Positions 49,471 through 63,587 of a stretch of DNA of 64,000 bases are shown piece by piece (within the stretch, counting starts at the first letter, position 1; every line of letters starts with the position of its first letter). The DNA comes from an uncultured Gemmatimonadales bacterium. GTDB taxonomy: Bacteria; Gemmatimonadota; Gemmatimonadetes; Gemmatimonadales; GWC2-71-9. The notes under the pieces were generated by a model. It saw only the letters and a program-made list of their open reading frames with translations, was not told the origin of the DNA and made no database searches. The stretch lies in contig CAWFOY010000001.1 of the NCBI GenBank assembly GCA_963817575.1, forward strand, positions 44,548-108,547, given 5' to 3'. Both the position numbers and the translations under genes were made by a program.

Positions 49471-49573
49471 TCCCCGGAATATACGACTTGGCGACCGACT
49501 GGCGTAACCGTGTCCGGGACGGCATCTTACGTTGGTTATCCCCCTTCCAGTCGCGAGGCACCGCCCCACCGAC

Positions 49574-52273
49574 GTGACGATCGGCACCGAGGAACGTCTC
49601 CGGTCCGCCCTGGCGGACCGCTACCGCATCGAGCGTGAAATCGGCGCCGGTGGGATGGCCACTGTCTACCTCGCACAGGACCTCCGCCACGATCGCAGGG
49701 TAGCGCTGAAGGTCCTCCGGGCGGAGCTGGCGGCGGTCATCGGCGCCGAGCGCTTCCTCGCCGAGATCAAGCTCACCGCCAATCTCCAGCATCCGCACAT
49801 CCTTCCGCTGCTCGACAGCGGGGAGGCGGGCCAGCGCGAAGACGGGTCCGGGATCTTCCTCTGGTACACCATGCCGTATGTGGAGGGGGAATCCCTCCGT
49901 GCACGGATCTCCCGTGAGAAGCAGCTCCCGGTCGACGAGGCGGTGCGGCTCGCCACCGAGGTGGCAAGCGCGCTCGACTACGCTCACCGCCACGGCGTCA
50001 TCCACCGCGACATCAAGCCCGAGAACGTCCTGCTTCACGATGGACAGGCCCTGGTGGCCGATTTCGGCATCGCGCTCGCCCTGAGCAGCGCCGGCACCCG
50101 GATGACCGAGACCGGGATGAGCCTCGGCACGCCGCACTACATGAGCCCCGAACAGGCGATGGGCGAGCGCGAGCTCACCGCCCGCAGCGACGTGTATGCA
50201 CTCGGCGCAATGCTGTACGAGATGCTGGTCGGCGAGCCGCCGTTCACGGGCCCCACGGCACAGGCCATCGTGGCGCGGGTGGTCACCGAGTCGCCGCGGC
50301 CGCTCCTGCCCCAGCGGCACACGATTCCGCCGCAGGTCGAGGCCGCGGTGATGAGGGCTCTGGAGAAGCTGCCGGCGGACCGATTCGGCAGCGCGGCCGA
50401 CTTTGCAGACGCGCTCACCAACCCGATGGCGGCCCTTGCGGTCGCGCGCGGCGGCACGACCGCACTGCGGCCGGTGTTTCGGGGGCGTGGCCTGTGGAAT
50501 CCGCTTGCCATTGCAGCAACCGCCCTCGCCGTTGTGGCAGGAACAGCCGCCCTTCGGATGGCGCTCAAGACCACGCCCCGGCCGGTGACGCGGGTGAGCC
50601 TGGCTTTCGCCCCGACCGAGCGGCCATCTCAGATTGGATTCCTGCGCCTCGCGATCGCACCGGACGGACGGCGGTTCGTGTACGCCGGGCCGGGTGAAGG
50701 CGGATCGCAACTCTGGCTCCGGGAGCTGGACAAGCTCCGCGCGACACCGATCGTCGGCACCGAGGGCGGGGTCAACCCCTTTTTCTCTCCCGATGGCCGC
50801 CAGATCGGCTATTTCGATGCCAATACCTTCGCCCTCCGGATCGCCTCGCTGGCCGGCGGCCCGCCGGTGACGCTGGTCGAGCGGGGGAATTCCGGTGGAG
50901 GCGGGGCGTGGTCCCTGGATGGCTACATCTACTTCGACACCAACGACGGGCTGAGGCGGATCAAGGCGACCGGCGGCACAATCGAGCCGGCGGTCGCGCT
51001 GGACTCGAGCCAGGCAGAGCTCGGGCATGCCTGGCCCGATGTGCTGCCGAAGGGCCGCGGCCTGATCTATCGCCTGCGGCACGTGGGCCAGGACCCCCGT
51101 GAGTACGACATCAAGGCAACGGACCTCCGTACCGGGAAGTCGAAGGTGCTGGTCCGCGGCGTGCTCGGGCGCTATGTCGAACCGGGATACCTCGTCTACG
51201 TCACGGCGGAAGGCGACCTGCTCGCGGCGCCCTTCGATGAGGACCGTCTCGAGCTGACGGGATCGCCGACACCCCTCCTCGAGGGCATCGGAGTCCGCGG
51301 GCTGGGCGGGACGGACGTCGTGATCTCCCGGTCGGGGGACCTCATGTACATCACCGGCGCCTCCGGCGGCATCGCCGAGATGGTCTGGGTGGGGCGGGAT
51401 GGTGTGGCCCGCCCGGTCGACCCTGGGTGGAATGCGACCGGCGTGCTCGCCTCACTGGCGCTCTCGCCCGACGGCCGCCAACTGGCTATCGGGGTCATCG
51501 GCGGTGTCGGTGGGGAGGACCTCTGGGTGAAGCAGCTCGACACTGGCCCGCTCTCGCGGCTCACGTTCGAGGGGGGCACCAACCTCAGGGCGTCGTGGAG
51601 CCCGGACGGACGCTTCGTACTCTACACCGGTGCGGACTCCAGTCTAGGGCTTCTCAGGAAGCGCGCGGACGGGAGTGGCGCGGCGGAAGTTGTGGTCCGC
51701 TTCCCGACCGAGATGGCCGAGAACCTCATGTCGCGCGACGGCCGCTGGATCGTGACCCGAAGCATCACGGGCATCGCCGGTGAGGGCGACATCTACGGAT
51801 TCCGGCCCGGGCTGGACACCGCGCCGACTCTCCTGGTCGCCACGAAGTTTCGTGAGACCAGTCCAGCACTGTCGCCCGACGGGCGATGGCTTGCATACAC
51901 CTCCAACGAATCGGGACGGCTCGAGGTCTACGTCCGGCCGTTTCCGGACGCCGCCACCGCACGGTGGCAAGTCTCGGTCGCAGGAGGGACGGAGCCGCGC
52001 TGGGCGCACAGCGGGCGCGAGCTCTTCTACCGGAACGGCGCCGGGGACCTGATCGCCGCGGAGGTGCGCGGCGTTCCTGCGTTCTCCGTCGTGCAGCAGC
52101 AGCGGCTCTTTTCCGCCTCGCCGTTCTTCTCGCTTCCCCCCCACTTCGGCTACGAGGTCGGGCCGGACGACCGGCGATTCCTGATGGCCCGGATGGAGCG
52201 GAGCGAGGAGGGAAGCGAAGTCGTGCTGGTGCAGAACTGGCGTGAGGAACTCAAACAGATCGGGAAACGATGA
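49574..52273 (+). CDS. Ser/Thr protein kinase with TM helix and C-terminal TolB-like (PD40/WD40-like) beta-propeller
   Basis: The kinase motifs GAGGMATVYLA, VALKVL, HRDIKPEN, DFGIA and SPEQ are present. A TM segment is followed by repeated SPDGR motifs. I prefer GVG 49574 by analogy with the paralogues; the track start is TTG 49532. Confidence 0.88.
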   Translation: MTIGTEERLRSALADRYRIEREIGAGGMATVYLAQDLRHDRRVALKVLRAELAAVIGAERFLAEIKLTANLQHPHILPLLDSGEAGQREDGSGIFLWYTMPYVEGESLRARISREKQLPVDEAVRLATEVASALDYAHRHGVIHRDIKPENVLLHDGQALVADFGIALALSSAGTRMTETGMSLGTPHYMSPEQAMGERELTARSDVYALGAMLYEMLVGEPPFTGPTAQAIVARVVTESPRPLLPQRHTIPPQVEAAVMRALEKLPADRFGSAADFADALTNPMAALAVARGGTTALRPVFRGRGLWNPLAIAATALAVVAGTAALRMALKTTPRPVTRVSLAFAPTERPSQIGFLRLAIAPDGRRFVYAGPGEGGSQLWLRELDKLRATPIVGTEGGVNPFFSPDGRQIGYFDANTFALRIASLAGGPPVTLVERGNSGGGGAWSLDGYIYFDTNDGLRRIKATGGTIEPAVALDSSQAELGHAWPDVLPKGRGLIYRLRHVGQDPREYDIKATDLRTGKSKVLVRGVLGRYVEPGYLVYVTAEGDLLAAPFDEDRLELTGSPTPLLEGIGVRGLGGTDVVISRSGDLMYITGASGGIAEMVWVGRDGVARPVDPGWNATGVLASLALSPDGRQLAIGVIGGVGGEDLWVKQLDTGPLSRLTFEGGTNLRASWSPDGRFVLYTGADSSLGLLRKRADGSGAAEVVVRFPTEMAENLMSRDGRWIVTRSITGIAGEGDIYGFRPGLDTAPTLLVATKFRETSPALSPDGRWLAYTSNESGRLEVYVRPFPDAATARWQVSVAGGTEPRWAHSGRELFYRNGAGDLIAAEVRGVPAFSVVQQQRLFSASPFFSLPPHFGYEVGPDDRRFLMARMERSEEGSEVVLVQNWREELKQIGKR

Positions 52274-52331: not shown

Positions 52332-54191
52332 ATGACCGGTTTGGGACTTCGCCTCACGATTGCGGTGATCCTGGCCTCGGGCCTCGCGGCCTTGGCGAAG
52401 TCGGCGCCGCGGGATCTGCCCACACGTGACGGCCTCCCCGAGGTCCGTCCCAACGACAACCGGAAACCAGCCGGCGAGTTGATCGGCAATGTGCTCATGC
52501 TTCGCCTCGAGGTCCGGATGGGGCGCTGGTGTCCGGAGCGGGAGAATGGGCCGTTTGTGATTGCCCCGGTCCTGGCGGAGGAAGGGAAGGCGCCTGAGGT
52601 CCCCGGCCCGCTCATCCGGGTGTGGACCGGCACGACGATCGTCGCAACCGTCAGGAACGCTCTCGCCGACTCCACTGTCACCCTCCACGGGCTGGCGACG
52701 CGGCCGAGTTCCCCGTCCGACAGCATCGTGCTCCAGCCTGGCGAGTCCCGCGTGGTCCGCTTCGGAGTCGGCGCGGCCGGCACCTATTTCTATCGGGCGG
52801 TGGTGGGCACGATCGACCACGACAAGGACGAGCAGGAACAGCTCGCGGGCGCCTTCATCGTCGATCCGCCGGGGGCACGGCAGGACGATCGGATCTTCGT
52901 GATCAATATCTGGGGCGACCAGGTGGATTCAACGCATTACCGGAACGCCCTGGCGATCAACGGACGGTCGTGGCCATACACCGAGCGACTCACGGCGACC
53001 GAGGGGGACAGCGTCCGCTGGCGCTTCATCAATGCCAGCGACCGGGTCCACCCGATGCATCTGCACGGCTTCTACTATCAGATCCAGAGCAAGGGTACGG
53101 TTTCGCGCGATACCGCCTATGCGCCGGCGGACCGAAGGCTCGTCGTCACGGAGGACCTCCGGCCGTATCAAACGATGTCGCTCGTGTGGCAACCGATGCG
53201 GGAGGGCAACTGGCTCTTCCACTGTCACCTGGCGTTCCACGCGGTCCCGGAGACCCGGCTCGAGCCGATGGATCATCACGCCGACAACATGGCCACCGAT
53301 CCGCGGCGGCACATGGGCGGACTGGTGCTCGGCGTGACGGTGCAGCCGGGTGCCGGATGGCGGGATGCGGCCCCGCCGGACCGGCGCGCGCTGCGCCTTC
53401 TGGTTCAGGAGGGGCGGCCGCACGGACACGCGGCACGAGGCCTGAGCTTCATTCTGCAGGACGGGGCCACGCCCCCGGCACCGGACTCGGTCCGGACCCC
53501 AGGCACCGTCATCGTGCTCACGCGCGGCCAACCGACCGACATCACGGTCGTCAACCGGCTCCCCGAGCCGACCTCCGTTCACTGGCACGGCATCGAGCTC
53601 GAGAGCTGGTCGGACGGTGTCGCCGGCTGGAGCGGCACCGGCAACAAGGTCGCGCCGGCGATCGCCAGTCAGGATTCGTTTACGGCCCACCTCATCACCC
53701 GGCGGGCGGGAACGTTCATCTACCACACCCATCTCAACGATCTCGAGCAGCTGACCGCGGGCCTCTATGGGGCGATCGTCGTCCTCGAGCCGGGGCAGCG
53801 GTTCGACCCCTCGACGGATCACGTGTTTGTAGCCGGGTGGGACGGGCCGGCGGAGCCCCCACGTTTCGTCGTCAACGGCGACACCACCGCGCCGGCTCAG
53901 GTGCTCGAGGCCGGGCGGTTGCACCGCTTCCGTTTCGTGAACATCGGACCGGCGGCGGGAGTGACGTACCGGCTCCTTCGCGATTCCACCCTCGTGAACT
54001 GGCGTCCGGTCGCAGTGGACGGGGCGGATCTCCCGGCCTCACAGACGGCTGAGCGCCCGGCCCGCCGGTTCGTGCAGATCGGCCAGACATTCGACGCCGA
54101 GTACACGCCCCCTTCCGCAGGGGACTACACTCTGACAGCCAGCGTGCCTGGCGGAGCGGTAGTCTTCGCTCAACGATTGATGTTCCGATGA
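52332..54191 (+). CDS. Atypical multicopper oxidase with permuted copper-motif order (four cupredoxin-like segments)
   Basis: 619 aa counted from ATG 52332, with a signal peptide. HPMHLHG is at aa 240-246 and HCH at aa 297-299. These precede HWHG at aa 417-420 and YHTH at aa 464-467. The first and last segments lack copper ligands. Confidence 0.8.
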   Translation: MTGLGLRLTIAVILASGLAALAKSAPRDLPTRDGLPEVRPNDNRKPAGELIGNVLMLRLEVRMGRWCPERENGPFVIAPVLAEEGKAPEVPGPLIRVWTGTTIVATVRNALADSTVTLHGLATRPSSPSDSIVLQPGESRVVRFGVGAAGTYFYRAVVGTIDHDKDEQEQLAGAFIVDPPGARQDDRIFVINIWGDQVDSTHYRNALAINGRSWPYTERLTATEGDSVRWRFINASDRVHPMHLHGFYYQIQSKGTVSRDTAYAPADRRLVVTEDLRPYQTMSLVWQPMREGNWLFHCHLAFHAVPETRLEPMDHHADNMATDPRRHMGGLVLGVTVQPGAGWRDAAPPDRRALRLLVQEGRPHGHAARGLSFILQDGATPPAPDSVRTPGTVIVLTRGQPTDITVVNRLPEPTSVHWHGIELESWSDGVAGWSGTGNKVAPAIASQDSFTAHLITRRAGTFIYHTHLNDLEQLTAGLYGAIVVLEPGQRFDPSTDHVFVAGWDGPAEPPRFVVNGDTTAPAQVLEAGRLHRFRFVNIGPAAGVTYRLLRDSTLVNWRPVAVDGADLPASQTAERPARRFVQIGQTFDAEYTPPSAGDYTLTASVPGGAVVFAQRLMFR

Positions 54192-54214: not shown

Positions 54215-54340
54215 GCTCGCGGCTCAAAGCCGCGGCTCGGCAGACGTCGCTAGAGCGACGGCTCGGCTGAAGTCCCTGAAGGGGCGCGAGGACCCCTTGG
54301 TCGCTTCAGCGACACCAGCCGAGCCGTGGCTTCAGCCACG
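54215..54340. repeat. Cluster of short GC hairpins, including a 23-nt element repeated at 57968-57990
   Basis: The stems are CGCGGCT-caa-AGCCGCG (54218-54234), CGTCGC-taga-GCGACG (54245-54260), AAGGGG-N8-CCCCTT (54279-54298), GTCGC-ttca-GCGAC (54300-54313) and CGTGGC-ttca-GCCACG (54325-54340). Confidence 0.6.
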
Positions 54341-56498
54341 TGCAATCAGCGGCTCCTTGGCGCTCCTCGCCTCGCTGGCGGCCGCCAGTTCGGCGATTGC
54401 CCAGGGCGCCTGCGAAACGCCGGCCGGCGTTCCGGGCGTGAGCCGCGACCTCTATTGTATCGAGCTCGTGCCGGCCGCCGGCGCGGGCGCCGCCCGCGGC
54501 ACGGCCCAGCTCGATTGGATTCCATCGCCATTCACGGTCGGCGTCGCTCCGGATGGCACCCACCGGTGGGACCTGACCTTCACATTGGAAGACCTGCCGC
54601 TGTTGCCGACCGGGCGACGGGCGGGTTTTGTGGCCTGGGCCACATCGCCATCGATGACCCCGATGGTCCGGCTCGGGACCGTCCGACCCGGCACCACCCG
54701 GGTCGGGCCGGTGGCCTTCGATCGCTTTCTGATCCTGATCTCGGCGGAGTCCGATACCACCACCACTGAACGCCGCGGGCCGCTGGTGCTGCGAGGCGAG
54801 TCCGCAGGCCTCCGGATGCGGCCCGCCGACACCTACCAGTTCTTCCTCGGCGCCCTGGGAGCACCTCCCACTCGATCCGACTCGAGTGGACACGCCGGGC
54901 ATCACGCCGCGGGACGTGACTCGGCCGGCTGGACCGATGTCCCGATGTATCCCGGCCTGGACATGCTCCCGTCGGAGATGGCGCTCCGGCCGCCGGTCCG
55001 GCCCTGGCGGCCGGAGGACGACCCAGCCGCGCCGGGTGCGCGGACGCGCGAGGTGGTGCGGGTGGCTGACGGGGACTCGCTCGAGCTCACCGCGGGTGTC
55101 GTGAACCGCACGATCGCGGGGCGCCGCTACACGATGTTCGGCTTCAATGGGCAGTATCCCGGTCCGCTGCTGATGGTTCCCGAGGGCGCTGAGATCACGG
55201 TCCGGTTCACGAACCGCCTCCCCCTCCCTTCCACGGTCCACTGGCACGGCCTCCGGCTCGACTCCCGGTTCGATGGGGTACCCGAGGTGAGCCAGGCGCC
55301 CGTCGAGCCGGGCGGGACGTTCACGTACCGCCTGCGCTTCCCGGACGGCGGCATCTTCTGGTATCACCCGCACGTGCGGGACGACGTGCAGCAGGACCTG
55401 GGGCTTTACGGCAACATCTTCGTACGGCCCAGCGACCCGGACGCCTACGGGCCGGCGCATCGCGAAGAGTTCCTGATCCTCGACGACCTGCTGGTGGGGA
55501 CCGACGGATTGGTGCCGTGGGGACTGGAGGCACCGACGCATGCCGCGATGGGGCGATTCGGCAACGTGATGCTGGTGAACGGCGAGCCGGATTGGCGGCT
55601 CCGCGTCAGGCCCGGCGAGGTCGTGCGCTTTTTCCTGACCAACGCCTCCGGCACGCGGACGTTCAACCTCAGTTTCGGCCCCGGCGTGCGGATGAAGGTC
55701 GTCGGCTCCGACCTGGGCACCTACTCGCGCGAGACGTGGGTCGAGAGCGTAGTCATCGCGCCCGCCGAGCGGTACGTTGTGGAGGCGCGCTTCGGGGCGA
55801 AGGGGAGCACGGCGCTGGTAAACCGCGTGCGGGCGATCGACCACCTCTATGCGCGTTTCCTTTCCGAGGTCGATACCCTCGGCGTGGTCGCCGTGGAGGG
55901 GGCAGATGCCTCGCCCGACCTTGCCGCTGACTTCGCGACCATCCGTGAGGCGGTGCCGGGGCAGGCTGAGATGCTCGCGCTTCTCCGTCAGCATCAGGGC
56001 CGCCCCCCCAACCGGACGCTCGAGCTCCGGGTCGCCTTCTCGGGGCTGCCGTTCGTCAGCGAGCGGCTGATGCGGATCGATTCGGCGTTCTTCAACCCGG
56101 TCGAGTGGGCCGGCACCATGCCGGGGATGAACTGGGCGACGACCGGAACCCAGGCCCGCTGGATGCTCCGCGACCCCGCCTCCGGTGCGGAGAACATGGC
56201 CCTCGATTGGCGATTCAAACGGGGAGAGAAGGTCCGGATCCGCCTGGTCAACGTACGGGAAGTCCTGCATGGGATGCAGCATCCGATACACCTGCACGGG
56301 CAGCGATTCCTGATTCTCGCGGTCAACGGCACCCCGAACCCCAATCCGGTCTGGAAAGACACGGTACTGGTGCCCGCAGGCGGCGCGGTGGATCTTCTGG
56401 TGGACATGTCCAACCCCGGCCGCTGGATGCTCCACTGCCACATCGCGGAGCACCTGCAGGCCGGCATGATGACCGTGATCAACGTGGAGGAGTCCTGA
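54297..56498 (+). CDS. Three-domain multicopper oxidase with ~250-aa N-terminal extension
   Basis: The canonical motif order holds: HWHG (55239), WYHPH (55359), HPIHLHG (56280) and HCHIAEHLQAGMM (56433). The N-terminal extension belongs to no family I recognise and contains the His/Met-rich stretch SGHAGHHAAG..MYPGLDMLPSEM. The TTG start is uncertain, with an alternative at TTG 54357. Confidence 0.85.
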   Translation: MVASATPAEPWLQPRAISGSLALLASLAAASSAIAQGACETPAGVPGVSRDLYCIELVPAAGAGAARGTAQLDWIPSPFTVGVAPDGTHRWDLTFTLEDLPLLPTGRRAGFVAWATSPSMTPMVRLGTVRPGTTRVGPVAFDRFLILISAESDTTTTERRGPLVLRGESAGLRMRPADTYQFFLGALGAPPTRSDSSGHAGHHAAGRDSAGWTDVPMYPGLDMLPSEMALRPPVRPWRPEDDPAAPGARTREVVRVADGDSLELTAGVVNRTIAGRRYTMFGFNGQYPGPLLMVPEGAEITVRFTNRLPLPSTVHWHGLRLDSRFDGVPEVSQAPVEPGGTFTYRLRFPDGGIFWYHPHVRDDVQQDLGLYGNIFVRPSDPDAYGPAHREEFLILDDLLVGTDGLVPWGLEAPTHAAMGRFGNVMLVNGEPDWRLRVRPGEVVRFFLTNASGTRTFNLSFGPGVRMKVVGSDLGTYSRETWVESVVIAPAERYVVEARFGAKGSTALVNRVRAIDHLYARFLSEVDTLGVVAVEGADASPDLAADFATIREAVPGQAEMLALLRQHQGRPPNRTLELRVAFSGLPFVSERLMRIDSAFFNPVEWAGTMPGMNWATTGTQARWMLRDPASGAENMALDWRFKRGEKVRIRLVNVREVLHGMQHPIHLHGQRFLILAVNGTPNPNPVWKDTVLVPAGGAVDLLVDMSNPGRWMLHCHIAEHLQAGMMTVINVEES

Positions 56499-57952
56499 TG
56501 TCCTGCATGTCGCACGTTCTCCGAATCGGCACGGGCGCGACGCTGATCACGCTCCTGGCCACAGGGACTGCCCCGGCGCAGGCCCCTGCCCCGGCCACGC
56601 TGGCGCCGGCGGTGACCCGCTACGTCAGTGTCAACGCGCCGGTCGTCGCGATCACGAATGTTCTGGTCATCGACGGCACCGGCGGGGCGGCCAAGCCGGG
56701 ACATACGGTGGTCATCCGCGACGGCCGCATCGAGGCCGTCGGGCCGACGGCGAAGGTCACGCCTCCGGCGGGCGCCACGATTATCGACGGGGCCGGGCAT
56801 ACGCTGATTCCCGGGATAATTGGGCTGCACGATCACCTGTACTACTCCGCGTCCGGCGGGCGCTCGCTGCAGATGAGCTTCACCGGGCCGCGGCTCTACC
56901 TGGCCGGCGGCGTCACGACCGTCCGCACCACCGGGAGCCAGTCGCCCTACGCGGACATCAATCTCAAGCGGAATATCGACGCGGGGAACGTTCCCGGGCC
57001 CCGCATCTTCGTGACGACGCCGTATCTCACCGGACCGGGCGGCGGCGGCGCGATGTCCGTGGCCACCACGCCCGAGGAGGCCCGCCGGTTCGTGGCCTAC
57101 TGGGCGGAGGAGGGGGCGGCGTGGATCAAGTTCTACGCGAGTATTTCCCGCGAGGCGATGAAGGCGGCGATCGACGAGGGTCACAAGCGCGGCATGCGGG
57201 CGACGGGGCATCTCTGCTCGGTCACCTTCCGCGAAGCGGTGGACCTCGGCATCGACGACCTGGCCCACGGGGCGCTGACGGCGACCGATTTCCATCCGCG
57301 GAAGGAGCCGGACAAGTGCCCGCAGGACGCCTACGCAGCGGTGGACACGGCGGTCTCGGCGCAGGGACCGATCGCCACCTCGCTGATCGAGCACATGGTC
57401 AAGCACAAGGTGTCGATGACGACCACCATGGCCGTGTTCGAGCTGTTCTATCCCGGCCGGCCGGTGACTGACGAGCGCGTGCTGGACCTCATGGCGCCGG
57501 AAGTGCGCACGGCCTATGTGGCGGAACGGGCCTATATCGACACCATGAAGAACTCCCCCCTGCAGGAAGCCGGGTTCAAGCGGGCGCTTGCGTTCGACAA
57601 GGCCTTCTACGACGCGGGCGGCGTGCTCGCCAGCGGCGTGGATCCCACCGGCAACGGCGGGGCGCTGCCCGGCTTCGGCGACCAGCGGGGATACGAGCTG
57701 CTCCGCGAGGGCGGTTTCGGCACCGAGCAGGCGGTACAGGTCGTGACGCTCAACGGTGCCCGGGTGCTGGGAGTCGCCGACCAGTGGGGTTCGATCGAGA
57801 AGGGCAAGAAGGCCGACCTCGTGCTCCTCAAGGGCGACCTCACCGCCGAGACGACGGTGATCCGGAATCCGATCACCGTTTTCAAGGACGGTGTCGGCTA
57901 CGACTCGGGAAAGCTCATCGCCGCCGTGCGCGGACGGGTCGGGATCAACTGA
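56498..57952 (+). CDS. Secreted amidohydrolase family protein
   Basis: The ATG overlaps the oxidase stop (TGATG). A signal peptide is present. The metal-binding motif LIPGIIGLHDHLYY and a C-terminal GSIEKGKKADLVLL motif are present. Confidence 0.82.
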   Translation: MSCMSHVLRIGTGATLITLLATGTAPAQAPAPATLAPAVTRYVSVNAPVVAITNVLVIDGTGGAAKPGHTVVIRDGRIEAVGPTAKVTPPAGATIIDGAGHTLIPGIIGLHDHLYYSASGGRSLQMSFTGPRLYLAGGVTTVRTTGSQSPYADINLKRNIDAGNVPGPRIFVTTPYLTGPGGGGAMSVATTPEEARRFVAYWAEEGAAWIKFYASISREAMKAAIDEGHKRGMRATGHLCSVTFREAVDLGIDDLAHGALTATDFHPRKEPDKCPQDAYAAVDTAVSAQGPIATSLIEHMVKHKVSMTTTMAVFELFYPGRPVTDERVLDLMAPEVRTAYVAERAYIDTMKNSPLQEAGFKRALAFDKAFYDAGGVLASGVDPTGNGGALPGFGDQRGYELLREGGFGTEQAVQVVTLNGARVLGVADQWGSIEKGKKADLVLLKGDLTAETTVIRNPITVFKDGVGYDSGKLIAAVRGRVGIN

Positions 57953-57967
57953 TCGTGACGCGGACTT

Positions 57968-57990
57968 GCTCGCGGCTCAACGCCGCGGCT
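57968..57990. repeat. Second copy of the GCTCGCGGCTCAAnGCCGCGGCT hairpin element
   Basis: It is 22/23 identical to 54215-54237. Both copies lie just downstream of a stop codon. Confidence 0.7.
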
Positions 57991-58025
57991 GGGGCCGAGG
58001 CGTGCCTTGGGCCACTGGCAAAGCC

Positions 58026-59612
58026 ATGACGATGGATCGCCGGGAGTTCATCGTATCGGGCGCCGCGGGCCTTGCGGCCGTGGGTCTGTCGCGGCCGGGC
58101 GATCACCGCCCGCCGGATTTCGATCCCACCGTGCGCGAGCTCTGCCAACGCGCGCTGGACGCGGCGCGTTCGGCAGGCGCGAACTACGCCGACATCCGCG
58201 TGATCCGCCGGCGGAGCCAGTCGGTGAGCACGCGGGAGCATCAGTTCGTGAGGGCGACCGACAGCGAGTCCCTCGGCTTCGGCGTGCGGGTACTGACACA
58301 GGGTGCCTGGGGATTCGCCGCCAGCCGCGAGCTCACGCGGGATGAGGTTACACGGGCGGCCCAGGCGGCGGTCGCCCAGGCCCGGGCGAACCGCCGCGCC
58401 ATGACGCGGCCCGTCGTGCTCGCGCCGACGCCGCCGGTCAAGGACGGACGCTGGAGTAGCCCGATCGAGATCGACCCCTTCACCGTTTCCATTGAGGACA
58501 AGGCGGCGCTGCTGCTCCAGGCCAACGGCGAGGCATTGAAGGTCGCCGGGGCTCGCTACGTCTCGTCGTCCATGGCGTTCGTGCTCGAGGACAAGACCTT
58601 CGCCTCTACGGACGACATCTTCACGGTGCAACAGGTCTATCGCTGCCTGCCGGAGGTCTGGGTCACCGCGGTCGATCCGGCGACGGGAGATTTCCAGACC
58701 CGCTACTCCGCCGAGGTCGCGCCGATGGGGTTGGGGTACGAGTGGGTCCGGAAGGCCGACCTGCCCGGGCGGGCTCCGCGCTGGGCGGAAGACGCCGTTC
58801 GGAAGCTGACCGCGAAGCCGGTGGAGCCTGGACGATACGATCTCGTGCTGGAACCGCACCACCTCTTCCTCACAATCCACGAGTCGATCGCCCACCCGAC
58901 CGAACTGGACCGCGCGCTCGGTTACGAGGCCAATTACGCAGGGACCAGCTTCTGCGCCCCGCCCGAGAAGATGCTGAATCGGCTCCGGTATGGGCCCGAG
59001 TTCATGCAGATCGAGTGCGATCGCTCGCAGCCCGGCTCGCTGTCGGCCTGCGGGTGGGATGACGACGGGGTAGCGCCGGAGACGTATCCCCTCATTCAGA
59101 ACGGGGTCCTGGTCGATTACCAGACCACCCGCGACCAGGTCGAGTGGATCCGGCCGCTCACCGGGCGCACCCGCTCGCACGGCTGCTCCTATGGCGCGTC
59201 CTGGTCGGAAGTGCAATTCCAGCGCATGCCCAACATCTCGCTGCTCCCCGGCGAGCAGGATCTCACCGCCGAGGATCTGATCGCCGCCACCGATCGCGGG
59301 ATCTACATCGCCGGTCACGGCTCGTATTCGATCGATCAGCAGCGCTACAACTTCCAGTTCGGCGGCCAGGCGTTCTACGAAATCCGCGGCGGGAAGATCG
59401 CCGGCATGCTGAAGGACGTGGCCTACCAGGCGCGCACCATCGATTTCTGGAACTCGATGGACATGATCGGCGGGAAGCGATCCTACGAGATGAACGGGAC
59501 GTTCTACGACGGGAAGGGCCAGCCGGGCCAGAGCAACGCGGTGAGCCACGGCTGCGTGCCCGCCCGTTTCCGGGGCGTGAACGTGCTGAACACCGGGGCG
59601 GACCGTGGCTGA
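58026..59612 (+). CDS. TldD/PmbA family metallopeptidase with twin-arginine signal
   Basis: The sequence MTMDRREFIVSGAAGLAAVGL is a Tat motif. The HExxxH-type motif IHESIAHPTE and the TldD-like C-terminus (GGQAFYEIRGGK..) are present. Confidence 0.85.
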   Translation: MTMDRREFIVSGAAGLAAVGLSRPGDHRPPDFDPTVRELCQRALDAARSAGANYADIRVIRRRSQSVSTREHQFVRATDSESLGFGVRVLTQGAWGFAASRELTRDEVTRAAQAAVAQARANRRAMTRPVVLAPTPPVKDGRWSSPIEIDPFTVSIEDKAALLLQANGEALKVAGARYVSSSMAFVLEDKTFASTDDIFTVQQVYRCLPEVWVTAVDPATGDFQTRYSAEVAPMGLGYEWVRKADLPGRAPRWAEDAVRKLTAKPVEPGRYDLVLEPHHLFLTIHESIAHPTELDRALGYEANYAGTSFCAPPEKMLNRLRYGPEFMQIECDRSQPGSLSACGWDDDGVAPETYPLIQNGVLVDYQTTRDQVEWIRPLTGRTRSHGCSYGASWSEVQFQRMPNISLLPGEQDLTAEDLIAATDRGIYIAGHGSYSIDQQRYNFQFGGQAFYEIRGGKIAGMLKDVAYQARTIDFWNSMDMIGGKRSYEMNGTFYDGKGQPGQSNAVSHGCVPARFRGVNVLNTGADRG

Positions 59613-60957
59613 CTGGCTCTCCCGGGAGGAGGCAAAGCGGCTCGCCGACCGGGTGCTCGGCTTCTCCCGCGCCGAGGGATGCCAGGTCAACCTGGCCTCG
59701 GGTCTCAATGGAAACACCCGATCGGCCGTGGACGGCGTCTCGACCTCAGGTGAAGTGCGGGACACGAGCGTGACGATCACCGCCCGCTTCGGGAAGCGGG
59801 CCGCATCCGTGTCCACCAATCTCCTCGACGATGCGGCGCTCCGCCGCGCGGTCGAAATCAGCGAGCAGCTGGCACGGCTCGCGCCGGAGAACCCGGAGCA
59901 GATGCCGCTGCTCGGCCTGCGGCGCTACGCCGGGGTGCCTGCCCTGTCCCGGGCAACGGTCGAGCTGGATGCCGGGGCGCGCGCGGAGGCCGCGGGCATT
60001 ACCCACGCCGCCTGTACGCGCGCCGGGCTTCGCGGCGCCGGTTTCATCCACCGCAGCGCCGGCGCGACCGCTGTGGCCAACTCCGCGGGACTCTTCGCGT
60101 ACCACGAGTCGAGCGAGGTCTCCCACACGCTGAGCGCGCGGACCCCTGCGGGCGACGGTGCCGGATGGGCCGGGACGTGGCACAACGACTGGGCCCGGAG
60201 TCGCCCGCCTGCTGTCGTGGCGGAACGCGCGATCGCGCGCGCGCTCGAGAGCCGGGGCGCAGCCCCGCTCGAGCCGGGCCGGTACACAGTAGTCCTCGAG
60301 CCTACCGCGGTGGCCAATCTGCTCGGGCTGCTGGCGGGGTCGCTCGATGCGCGCGCCGCGGATGAAGGCCGGAGCTTCTTCAGCCGGCGGGGCGGCGGCA
60401 ACCGGATCGGAGAGAAGGTCGTGGACGACCGGGTCACGATCCTGTCGGATCCCGGGGATCCCGACCTGTTGCAGGTTCCGTTCACCCCGGAGGGGGAACC
60501 GATCGGACGGACCGTGTGGCTCGAGAACGGCGTCGTGCGGAACCTCGTCTACAACCGGTTCTGGGCCGACAAACAGGGTGTGGCAGCCCGGCCGCAGGGC
60601 GGCGGTGTCCGGATGGCCGGCACCGAGGCGACGGTCGATGAGCTCATCGCCCAGCTGGATCGCGGGCTGCTGGTCACCCGGTTCTGGTACATCCGGAGCG
60701 TGGATCCGCGCACCATCACCCATACCGGGCTCACCCGCGACGGCGTGCTGCTGATCGAGAACGGCAAGGTGACTCGTGCCGTGCAGAATTTCCGGTTCAA
60801 TGAGAGCCCGGTCACCATGCTCCGCAACCTGGTGGCGCTCGGGAAGCCGGAGCGCGTGTCGAGCTCCGAGGACGGCGGCCTGGGCGGCACGGCGATGGTG
60901 GTCCCTCCGATCGTGACGCGGGAGTTCAACTTCACGTCGGTCAGCGAGGCGGTATGA
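59605..60957 (+). CDS. TldD/PmbA family protein (PmbA-like partner), no signal peptide
   Basis: 450-aa ORF that overlaps the upstream TldD-like gene by 8 nt. The C-terminus LVTRFWYIRSVDPRTITHTGLTRDGVLLIENGK is PmbA/TldD-like. Confidence 0.85.
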   Translation: MADWLSREEAKRLADRVLGFSRAEGCQVNLASGLNGNTRSAVDGVSTSGEVRDTSVTITARFGKRAASVSTNLLDDAALRRAVEISEQLARLAPENPEQMPLLGLRRYAGVPALSRATVELDAGARAEAAGITHAACTRAGLRGAGFIHRSAGATAVANSAGLFAYHESSEVSHTLSARTPAGDGAGWAGTWHNDWARSRPPAVVAERAIARALESRGAAPLEPGRYTVVLEPTAVANLLGLLAGSLDARAADEGRSFFSRRGGGNRIGEKVVDDRVTILSDPGDPDLLQVPFTPEGEPIGRTVWLENGVVRNLVYNRFWADKQGVAARPQGGGVRMAGTEATVDELIAQLDRGLLVTRFWYIRSVDPRTITHTGLTRDGVLLIENGKVTRAVQNFRFNESPVTMLRNLVALGKPERVSSSEDGGLGGTAMVVPPIVTREFNFTSVSEAV

Positions 60958-63587
60958 GCACCACACGCCTCAGTGCCGCCCTATCCGACCGCTACCGGAT
61001 CGAGCGCGAGCTAGGGGCGGGTGGCATGGCCACGGTATACCTCGCGCGCGACCTCAAGCATGACCGCGAGGTGGCGCTCAAGGTGCTGCGGCCCGAGCTG
61101 GCCGCGGTGATCGGCGCCGAGCGATTCCTGAGCGAGATCCGCATCACCGCGCGACTCGACCACCCCCACATCCTCACCCTCATCGACTCCGGCGAGGCCG
61201 ACGGCATGCTGTATTATGTGCTGCCGTTCGTGCGGGGCGAGTCGCTCCGCACGCGGCTCGAGCGGGAGAAGCAGCTGGGGATGGAAGAAGCGCTGGCCAT
61301 CACGCAGCAGATCGCGGGTGCCCTGGAGTATGCGCACAAGCACGGCGTGGTGCACCGGGACATCAAGCCGGAGAACATCCTGATCCACGAGGGCGAGGCG
61401 GTGCTGACCGACTTCGGCATCGCGCTGGCGGTCAAGGAGGCCGGCGGCAACCGGCTGACCGAAACCGGGCTCTCGCTCGGTACGCCGCAGTACATGAGCC
61501 CGGAGCAGGCCACCGGCGACCGCACCCTCGACGCGCGTTCCGACGTCTACTCGCTCGGCGCGGTGTTGTACGAAATGCTGGCGGGGGAGCCGCCCGTGAC
61601 CGGCCCGAACGCGCGGGCGATGATCGCCAAGCTCATGACGGAGCGGCCGACCAGGCTCCGAACCGTGCGGGACACGGTGCCGGAGGGCATCGACAACGCG
61701 GTCGCGAAGGCGCTGGCCAAGGTGCCGGCTGACCGCTTCGCAGGGGCGGCCGCCTTCACGGCGGCGCTTACCGCCGGCAATCAGCCGCCCCAGACAGCGG
61801 CGCGTCGCGCGCCGCCGCTTTATTGGATGGCCGGGACCGGTGTGCTCGTCGTCGTCGCGGGCTTGTTCCTGATACGAGACCGCGGTGCCGCCAGGGCGCC
61901 ATCCCCGTTCGCGGCAGCGGTGCCGGTCCAGCTCACGACGTCGGGAGAGGCCTTTGAGCCGCTGATGTCGCCCGACGGCTCGCTGGTCGCGTACGTCGAG
62001 CGGAGATGTGAGTCGGAGCGGGTCTGTCGCGGCGAGCTGGTCGTGCGCGAAGTGTCCGGCGAGGGCGTCAGCACAATCCATTCCGAGCCTGGCGTCGCCG
62101 CCAGTCCAGTGGCGTGGAGTGCCGATTCGCGGTACATCGTCGTCTCGATCTGGGAACTGGAAAGTAACCGGGGACTCGGCACCTCCGTGCTCCCGCAGCG
62201 CGGGGGCACCCTTCGGCGCCTCGTCCCCGAGAGCTTCGTGACCGGCGGATTTGTCGCCCCGGACACGATCGTCCTGGCGCCGTTCGAGGGTGAGTCCCAT
62301 TGGCTCCGCCGGATCGTGGTATCGACCGGACAGGTGGTGGACAGCGTGCTCCTGCCCGTGGGCACCTATCTGGACCGACTGGAGCCGTCCGGCGATGGGA
62401 GCCGCCTGCTCGCTTCGCACTATAGGGCGAGTGACGACGAGGGGCAGGTCGCGGTGCTGGACCGGACGGGCGCGGTACTCGACACCCTCCGCGGCGACGC
62501 GATCGCGCGATGGACCGGCCGGCCCGGGGAATTGATTCTCAACCGCTGGCTGGGCGCGGGCGGGCGCCAGTTCATCCGGCGGCGGCTCGATGCGCGAGGG
62601 CGGTTCCTCCCGGAATCGGACACGCTGCGTGCAGTGCCGGAAGACGGGAAGATCGGCGGCATCAGTCCCGATGGCACCGCGCTGGTGTACGGCGCCGACC
62701 GGCTCGGCGAGACCGGGATCTGGACCGCCATTCGCCCGGGCCCCAGCGGGCCATTCAGCCGGGGACGGCGCATCGGAACGTCCACCGGGCGGCTCATCGC
62801 TCGGATTTCGCCCGGCGGGCGGTGGCTCATGCTGAGCGAGCAGACGGGCACGCCCGGCGGTCCCCGGACCCGGCTGACTGTGGAGCCGTTCGAGGGCGGC
62901 GCGCGCCAGGTGATCGAGCCCTCGGCGCCACAGCGCAACGACTTCGCCTTTGCCCCGGCGGACGACAGCATCGCCGTGTTCACCGGCCCGACGCCCGGGC
63001 AGGTCGATCTGACCGTCTACCCCCTGCCCTCCGGAAGGCCGGTGCGTCGCGGCACCTACCGCGCCACCGTGAACGACGCCGAGTGGCTGAGCGACGGGCG
63101 ACTGACGATGGTCGGCGACGACCGCCGGCACATTCGAGTGTTCGAACGCGACGGCTCGGTCACCAAGTTCGCCATACCGGATTCGTTCGGGCTCGTGGAT
63201 CAGGCCGGGAGGTCGCCGTCGATTCCGGCTCTCGCGCTGAGCAGCCGGAACAACACCGGGGACCGGGAGGAATCGCTGCTCACCTGGCTGGATCTCCGCT
63301 CCGGCCACGTCACGCTCATCACCCGAACCACTGCCCATCGCATTCAGGGCGGCCTGTGGTGGACGCGCGACGGCTGGGTCCACACGCCGGTGTGGGATCC
63401 GCGGGACCGTACGCCACACGTCCACCGGGCCCCGGTTTCCGGAGGCGCGCTCGAGGAAGAGCCGCCGATCGACTTCGAGACCGACGGACGGGTGACCTCC
63501 CTGGCGCACGACGGGCGCCGGGCGGTGGTCGAGGCCCAGCGCTCCACCAGTGACGTGTGGGTGCTTCGCGCGGCGGGGCCGAAGTGA
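60954..63587 (+). CDS. Ser/Thr protein kinase with TM helix and C-terminal beta-propeller-like domain
   Basis: The ATGA start overlaps the PmbA-like stop. The kinase motifs GAGGMATVYLA, VALKVL, HRDIKPEN and DFGIA are present. A TM segment (WMAGTGVLVVVAGLFLI) is followed by SPDG repeats. Confidence 0.88.
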   Translation: MSTTRLSAALSDRYRIERELGAGGMATVYLARDLKHDREVALKVLRPELAAVIGAERFLSEIRITARLDHPHILTLIDSGEADGMLYYVLPFVRGESLRTRLEREKQLGMEEALAITQQIAGALEYAHKHGVVHRDIKPENILIHEGEAVLTDFGIALAVKEAGGNRLTETGLSLGTPQYMSPEQATGDRTLDARSDVYSLGAVLYEMLAGEPPVTGPNARAMIAKLMTERPTRLRTVRDTVPEGIDNAVAKALAKVPADRFAGAAAFTAALTAGNQPPQTAARRAPPLYWMAGTGVLVVVAGLFLIRDRGAARAPSPFAAAVPVQLTTSGEAFEPLMSPDGSLVAYVERRCESERVCRGELVVREVSGEGVSTIHSEPGVAASPVAWSADSRYIVVSIWELESNRGLGTSVLPQRGGTLRRLVPESFVTGGFVAPDTIVLAPFEGESHWLRRIVVSTGQVVDSVLLPVGTYLDRLEPSGDGSRLLASHYRASDDEGQVAVLDRTGAVLDTLRGDAIARWTGRPGELILNRWLGAGGRQFIRRRLDARGRFLPESDTLRAVPEDGKIGGISPDGTALVYGADRLGETGIWTAIRPGPSGPFSRGRRIGTSTGRLIARISPGGRWLMLSEQTGTPGGPRTRLTVEPFEGGARQVIEPSAPQRNDFAFAPADDSIAVFTGPTPGQVDLTVYPLPSGRPVRRGTYRATVNDAEWLSDGRLTMVGDDRRHIRVFERDGSVTKFAIPDSFGLVDQAGRSPSIPALALSSRNNTGDREESLLTWLDLRSGHVTLITRTTAHRIQGGLWWTRDGWVHTPVWDPRDRTPHVHRAPVSGGALEEEPPIDFETDGRVTSLAHDGRRAVVEAQRSTSDVWVLRAAGPK

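Follow-up and report, generated by a model that had tools for sequence, protein, structure and literature searches.

Multicopper oxidases (MCOs) are classed as two-domain (2d), three-domain (3d) and six-domain (6d) proteins, and the two-domain forms are further divided by type definitions (PMC13151041, 2026). In type-B 2dMCOs such as SLAC and CjMCO the type 1 (T1) copper sits in the C-terminal-type domain. Their separate chains of about 280–400 amino acids (aa) form homotrimers with the clusters at the subunit interfaces, each cluster lying between the C-type domain of one unit and the N-type domain of the next (PMC13151041). In all bacterial six-domain MCOs (MnxG-like) analysed by Vasin et al. 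(2013; PMC3600357) the trinuclear site is found between domain 2 and domain 3, with a mononuclear T1 site in domain 2 only. Algal Fox1-type ferroxidases also have their trinuclear site between domain 2 and domain 3, and the ceruloplasmin cluster lies between domains 1 and 6; the six-domain proteins in that study were selected at more than 800 aa, and the bacterial ones listed have at least 1,217 aa (PMC3600357). Here we describe an MCO gene at positions 52332–54191 (+) of a 64,000-nucleotide window from an uncultured Gemmatimonadales bacterium (assembly GCA_963817575.1, contig CAWFOY010000001.1, positions 44,548 to 108,547 of the forward strand); all coordinates below refer to this window. The gene encodes a chain of four cupredoxin domains, and we consider it likely that its product is a functional, exported MCO built from two fused type-B-like two-domain units in the order N-C-N-C, with copper only at the junction of the units.

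The coding sequence is a single uninterrupted open reading frame (ORF) of 619 aa plus stop, and an identical 619-aa protein has been called in the assemblies of two other, independent sequencing runs, with a precomputed Pfam order of Cu-oxidase_3, _2, _3. The whole protein exceeds the cut-offs of PF07732 (117.6 bits) and PF07731 (81.6 bits). We cut it into segments A (residues 30–182), B (183–345), C (346–492) and D (493–619) and scanned each with Pfam. Domain A (52419–52877, +) is an N-type cupredoxin matching Cu-oxidase_3 (7e-11) that lacks copper ligands; domain B (52878–53366, +) is C-type and matches Cu-oxidase_2 (5e-17), and domain C (53367–53807, +) is again N-type and matches Cu-oxidase_3 (6e-19). 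The final domain D (53808–54188, +) is a diverged, ligand-free cupredoxin-like domain of the C/middle type. Its match to PF00394 (Cu-oxidase) is sub-threshold only, yet recurs in domain D of five of six relatives (E 8e-4 to 7e-3), and against PDB sequences D gave no match.

The ligand motifs are confined to the two central domains. Domain B carries HPMHLHG (aa 240–246; 53049–53069, +), with T1 His240 and trinuclear His243 and His245, followed by HCHLAFH (aa 297–303; 53220–53240, +), with trinuclear His297 and His299, T1 Cys298 and T1 His303. Domain C carries HWHG (aa 417; 53580–53591, +) and YHTH (aa 464; 53721–53732, +). In domain A the HWHG position is occupied by TLHGL (aa 116–120; 52677–52691, +) and the WYHxH position by YFYRAV (aa 152–157; 52785–52802, +). 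Every one of these motifs lies at the residue where an earlier sequence-only reading of the window had placed it. The adjacent 3dMCO gene (54297–56498, +) has the canonical order, with HWHG (315), YHPH (357), HPIHLHG (662) and HCHIAEH (713).

With four ligand motifs (HxH, HxH, HxxHxH and HCHxxxH...M) and Pfam-recognised cupredoxin domains, the protein belongs to the multicopper oxidase superfamily. It is not a three-domain MCO, having four domains and the motif order HxxHxH, HCH, HxH, HxH, and it is not a type-B two-domain MCO, being a four-domain chain in which neither half has the full ligand set. The restriction of ligands to B (domain 2) and C (domain 3), with T1 in domain 2, is that of the MnxG/Fox1 type, although at 619 aa and four domains the chain is not a six-domain one. 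No NCBIfam model claims the protein; it scores 103.7 with CopA/PcoA (TIGR01480; cut-off 478.95) and 68.4 with CueO (NF008205; cut-off 525).

A word-indexed search at E ≤ 1e-5 brought up over 7,600 homologues. Those listed from it, 120 in number, are nearly all 580–640 aa long, cover at least 91% of the query and bear generic names only; the majority of relatives listed are about 600–690 aa. In an exhaustive search over 50%-identity cluster representatives, 622 clusters matched at E ≤ 1e-30, and about 120 of the best 150 representatives matched over their full length in a single stretch at 38–58% identity. Conservation was counted on an alignment of 120 such full-length representatives (38–58% identity). 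Residues H240, H243, H245, H297, C298, H299, H303, H417, H419, H465 and H467 are each present in 120 of 120, and the survey of homologues that the sequence-only reading had called for thus found the same motif order throughout. Met328 is kept in 119, the remaining sequence having Leu. In domain A, H119 is retained in 56 of the 120 and the other three ligand positions are never His; in domain D neither His nor Cys ever occurs at the positions equivalent to HxxHxH and HCH. Ligands are conserved in B and C and not in A and D, and the family therefore holds one T1 and one trinuclear ligand set, split over the two central domains.

Among species-representative genomes at least 587 loci contain a relative. 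Gemmatimonadota account for 71 of the best 80 loci, and the others belong to Acidobacteriota/Terriglobia, Bacteroidota (among them the cultured strain Flavihumibacter profundi KCTC 62290), Rhodothermales and one unclassified bacterium. A second cultured member is found in the type strain Gemmatirosa kalamazoonensis KBS708, on the 1.1-Mb plasmid 1 (NZ_CP007129.1, 418958–420661; L082:4770-6782, +). At 45% identity it keeps the motif order, as HMMHLHG, HCHILAH, HWHG and YHVH; its PLSDB record is without annotation. The Gemmatimonadales metagenome-assembled genome SMAG_U4471 has family members on two different contigs (L034 and L060), and some genomes therefore hold paralogues.

The chain is a tandem of two homologous two-domain units. 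In a tblastn search of plasmids, two separate parts of the query matched the same short gene in cyanobacteria and Burkholderia. The Nostoc version, named 'copper oxidase' (WP_251960893.1, 406 aa), carries the motifs HWHG, YHSH, HPMHIHG and HCHIAHH and is by these, under the type definitions of PMC13151041, a two-domain MCO of type B. Units A-B (aa 89–304) align with residues 159–386 of this protein at 34% identity (E 2e-31), and C-D (aa 388–605) with residues 159–382 at 29% identity (E 4e-22), so that each half is homologous to the two-domain type over its full length. In these alignments TLHG falls on HWHG, YFYRAV on YFYHSH, and the ligand-free domain D on HPMHIHG and HCH. A comparison of A-B with C-D in hhalign gave a probability of 94.6% (E 6.6e-8) over 189 columns that span both domains, and a profile comparison of domain A with domain C alone gave 88%. 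By pairwise BLAST the halves match each other at E 0.004, and each is nearer to the Nostoc protein than to the other half; the duplication or fusion is therefore old. When the family profile was compared with PDB sequences, A-B ran colinear with 2zwn and 3g5w, both of them two-domain MCOs (profile 81–301, chain 29–262), and C-D with domains 1–2 of many 3dMCOs (profile 384–560, chain 30–216).

The full-length AlphaFold2 (AF2) model, made from a 38-sequence alignment, contains four β-sandwich domains at a predicted local distance difference test (pLDDT) score of 84.1 and a predicted TM-score (pTM) of 0.84, and confidence is low only in loops, notably 301–330. Six-domain relatives top the Foldseek ranking of this model against the PDB: MnxG (9bxa) has a TMq of 0.65, ceruloplasmin 0.60–0.62 (4enz, 0.62) and factors V and VIII 0.56–0.62, while the four-domain factor VIII heavy chain (4bdv_A) gives TM 0.58 and 0.59, depending on the normalisation. 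For three-domain MCOs the TMq is no higher than about 0.33. Ceruloplasmin and factors V and VIII share with the four-domain protein a run of consecutive cupredoxin domains, and the A1-A2 heavy chain of factor VIII is itself a four-domain chain; they differ in being eukaryotic and have a sequence identity of 11–14%. By sequence, MnxG is absent from the 60 best PDB matches listed (single sequence and profile), and ceruloplasmin comes in only towards the end of the listed profile matches, on domain B alone. The A-B model taken by itself (pLDDT 85, pTM 0.88) is closest to two-domain MCO protomers, with TM-scores of 0.67/0.67 for 2zwn, 0.64 for 3g5w, 0.64/0.70 for 3gdc and 0.64/0.67 for 7rab; copper nitrite reductases score about 0.6 and SLAC-type proteins about 0.54/0.61.

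The sequence-only reading had proposed that a dead domain 1 is followed by a domain 2 with T1 and half of the trinuclear cluster, a domain 1 with the other half, and a dead domain 2, with complementary loss of sites between tandem halves. The Pfam parse, which returned Cu-oxidase_3, _2, _3 and a weak Cu-oxidase in that order, the Nostoc alignments, hhalign, the A-B model and the whole model all agree with this scheme. The N-terminal segment is indeed a degenerate counterpart of domain 1, without a ligand set anywhere in the family. The C-terminal segment, which aligns with domain 2 of the Nostoc protein, is all-β in the AF2 model and free of ligands family-wide. The dead motifs of A and dead positions of D in the Nostoc alignments bear out the complementary loss.

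The T1 site of the family has a feature of its own. Canonical MCOs follow the pattern HCHxxxHxxxxM, and the loop between the T1 His and the Met is generally seen as tuning the redox potential and the access of the substrate. The gap of 4 aa in canonical MCOs is replaced here by 24 residues between H303 and the Met, and by 19–55 in relatives. This family-specific, His-rich loop (53241–53312, +) stands out by its length, composition and low pLDDT; the stretch at aa 311–328 reads EPMDHHADNMATDPRRHM, and the T1 loop region of the neighbouring 3dMCO reads HCHIAEHLQAGM. The composition of the family loop is 10% His, 8% Asp, 10% Pro, 14% Ala and 3.9% Met, and two semi-conserved His precede the Met (77/120 and 72/120). 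Deleting residues 305–324 in silico moved the end of the Cu-oxidase_2 match from 124 to 131 of 137 positions and raised its score from 62.5 to 66.6 bits, and on this ground Met328 (53313–53315, +) is taken as the displaced axial T1 ligand; the cut was chosen to restore canonical spacing, and the outcome is partly by construction. None of the 60 PDB matches listed has a comparable T1 loop, all of them ending by profile position 88 of 122, just after HCHxxxH. The sequence-only reading had noted a His/Met-rich insertion where the axial Met normally sits. Its location was right; the Met is retained as M328, and the loop is rich in His, Asp, Pro and Ala rather than Met and is found throughout the family.

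We propose that domain B would bind the T1 copper through His240, Cys298, His303 and the axial Met328 and contribute four of the eight trinuclear histidines, and that domain C would supply the remaining four. The substrate would hand its electrons to T1, and these would travel along the His297-Cys298-His299 triad and reach a trinuclear cluster located at the B/C interface within the chain, the place at which O2 would be reduced to water. This interface would be the counterpart of the inter-subunit interface in trimeric 2dMCOs and of the domain 2/3 interface in MnxG and Fox1. The outer domains A and D, with all their ligands lost, would serve B and C as structural partners. The protein is probably a monomer that fills four of six ring positions with no partner protein. 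The His-rich loop of 19–55 residues would lie directly over the T1 site and is most likely a lid or a metal-binding substrate site; for this reason we would guess, with low confidence, that a metal ion serves as the substrate, with Cu(I), Fe(II) and Mn(II) as candidates, in preference to a phenol.

Several points weigh against this account. A TM of about 0.6 at a root-mean-square deviation of 6–7 Å signifies a domain arrangement similar to that of the structural relatives, not identical with it. The putative geometry of the B/C trinuclear site comes from ligand conservation and from equivalence to the 2dMCO inter-subunit interface. The AF2 model describes a monomer only; the protein may form a higher oligomer or have a ring-closing partner in trans. 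Model confidence is low in the T1 loop (pLDDT about 52–55). As for a metal substrate, the Met content of the loop is low, the gene neighbourhood is not conserved and copper-homeostasis genes are not adjacent.

Domains B, C and D could instead be read as the catalytic core of a circularly permuted 3dMCO (D3-D1-D2), with A as a dead N-terminal appendage. The colinearity of C-D with D1-D2 of many 3dMCOs and the weak match of D to PF00394, the middle-domain family of 3dMCOs, fit such an arrangement, and the TMq of about 0.33 is consistent with it, as a sequential aligner would give a two-domain match. It is nevertheless unlikely, since both sequence and structure mark A-B as a full 2dMCO-like unit in its own right, homology between the halves extends over both domains, and four successive domains of six-domain proteins give the better superposition for the whole model (TM about 0.6). 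For B-C-D the permuted and tandem descriptions may agree in space, and the difference is in part one of naming. The structural ranking, with MnxG 9bxa as best match, would also suit a truncated MnxG-type six-domain oxidase that retains domains 1–4 and has its ring completed by a separate two-domain protein or by self-association. The site placement is as in bacterial six-domain MCOs (PMC3600357), and a few members carry the JGI name 'manganese oxidase'. We regard this as improbable: MnxG lies outside the 60 best PDB matches listed while 2dMCOs and 3dMCOs rank high, a two-domain partner and mnxE/F-like genes do not recur in 80 related loci, and longer members never have Pfam-detectable extra cupredoxin domains.

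Many other members are named 'FtsP/CotA-like multicopper oxidase with cupredoxin domain' by JGI, a label that would accord with a copper-free structural protein of MCO fold, like FtsP/SufI. The family-wide invariance of the copper ligands makes this very improbable, and the protein has no significant match to NF008135 (NCBIfam FtsP), which the neighbouring 3dMCO matches weakly. The unusual motif order, taken alone, might also arise from a frameshifted or misassembled 3dMCO or from fused gene fragments, and the sequence-only reading had named a frameshift or misassembly as what would overturn it. We give an artefact hardly any credence. The ORF is uninterrupted, the identical protein recurs in two other assemblies, and thousands of full-length homologues exist, among them members on long contigs and in the cultured G. 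kalamazoonensis KBS708 and F. profundi KCTC 62290; the homologue survey rules it out.

We therefore return to the fusion of two type-B-like units and to its differences from described MCOs. Unlike the type-B enzymes, the four-domain protein has two units in one chain, a single, predicted intramolecular cluster, and outward-facing half-sites that have been lost. With 3dMCOs (CueO/CopA, laccases and the neighbour at 54297–56498) it shares the same four ligand motifs, presumably the same chemistry, and the colinearity of C-D with domains 1–2; it differs in its permuted motif order, in CopA and CueO scores far under the cut-offs and in its low structural similarity. With MnxG and Fox1 it has in common the alternation of N- and C-type cupredoxin domains and a trinuclear cluster between domains 2 and 3, the MnxG placement being taken from PMC3600357. 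Those proteins have six domains and more than 1,200 aa, compared with four domains and about 620 aa here, and the four-domain protein has the long T1 His-to-Met loop and no MnxE/F-like genes nearby.

What is new is thus the chain of four domains together with the long, His-rich loop at T1, while the site placement matches domains 1–4 of MnxG/Fox1. The sequence-only reading would have been set aside had its motif order been common in a characterised subfamily. The placement of the sites, and with it the permuted order, has indeed been described for a characterised subfamily, six-domain MnxG and Fox1 (PMC3600357), so that this objection applies in part; a four-domain chain was not found described. 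A literature search for such a chain returned nothing relevant in open-access full text, with subscription journals mostly outside its scope. The family has no curated model, and no paper on it was found in the open-access literature, which is weak evidence of absence.

We tentatively suggest, giving it a little less than an even chance, that this stand-alone '4dMCO' is a fourth architectural class of MCO, a duplication intermediate between trimeric two-domain and six-domain MCOs that is abundant in Gemmatimonadota and has a T1 loop far longer than in any solved MCO, possibly a new substrate or metal site. The two-, three- and six-domain scheme would gain a class from a four-domain family that is large and conserved. 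If the suggestion is correct, the family would preserve in living bacteria the tandem duplication that models deriving six-domain from two-domain MCOs assume, a step in which an inter-subunit metal cluster becomes intramolecular while the leftover half-sites decay. In practical terms the family is a large reservoir, within abundant soil phyla, of uncharacterised oxidases whose T1 environment is unusual. Two cultured strains have members, and the predictions are therefore directly testable.

The longest ORF opens with GTG at 52242 and would give 649 aa, and the ATG at 52332 gives 619 aa; 59 nt separate this ATG from the stop codon of the kinase gene upstream. Homologues open with a hydrophobic signal peptide of the same kind, for which reason the ATG is the likely start. 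The predicted signal peptide (aa 1–24, ...LAALA/KS; 52332–52403, +) is of the Sec type without a twin-arginine motif, as judged from the sequence, the N termini of relatives and an AF2 helix at residues 4–22. Tat-like N termini occur in only 11 of 120 relatives, the signal peptides being otherwise Sec-like. Directly after the signal peptide lies a near-invariant motif, NDNRxPAG (aa 41–48; 52452–52475, +), which is visible in diverse representatives and modelled with high confidence; N41, N43, R44 and G48 are invariant in one family alignment. A scan for promoters and terminators gave nothing above shuffled expectation.

Gene neighbourhoods were compared across 80 related loci, with all flanking ORFs clustered without bias. 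Ser/Thr kinases are the only recurrent flanking genes, found within 5 kb in 28 of the 80 loci, in either orientation and on either side. In the window, Ser/Thr kinases with C-terminal PD40/β-propeller regions flank the region at 49532–52273 (+) and 60954–63587 (+). This recurrence could reflect the mere abundance of kinases in Gemmatimonadota. Beyond the kinases, no conserved partner or operon is seen in more than a handful of the 80 loci, and neither two-domain cupredoxin partners nor genes for copper homeostasis nor mnxE/F-like genes recur among them. A functional pairing with the adjacent 3dMCO was considered and rejected, the 3dMCO matches in the 80 loci being cross-hits to domain C with the exception of one locus. 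That neighbour is 733 aa long. About 250 aa extend N-terminally of its cupredoxin domains; this extension has a signal peptide, no Pfam match and a His-rich linker, SSGHAGHHAAG, ahead of the first of them. Downstream of both oxidases lie genes for an amidohydrolase (56528–57952, +) and then a TldD/PmbA metallopeptidase pair (57891–59612 and 59605–60957, +).

Fusions occur in some members of the family, to peptidase S9, amidohydrolase, α/β-hydrolase, PD40 or AhpC domains or to Pfam-negative extensions. Six-domain relatives were sought among the longer members and rejected, the extensions having no Pfam-detectable cupredoxin pair. A distant member of 1030 aa (P0234) consists of an amidohydrolase fused to a four-domain MCO. 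In five of the 80 loci the MCO gene adjoins a gene (for example L036:4442-5080, −) whose product is about 210 aa long, lacks a Pfam match and carries the motif HVACYHE..MEAFMARG, and in member P0203 the same protein is fused to the MCO C terminus; it is possibly a functional partner of the four-domain MCO. In F. profundi KCTC 62290 a gene for a Haem_bd and cytochrome P460 protein lies immediately downstream of the family member (L065:8009-8953, +), an arrangement not seen in Gemmatimonadota loci, and its product is a possible electron-transfer partner.

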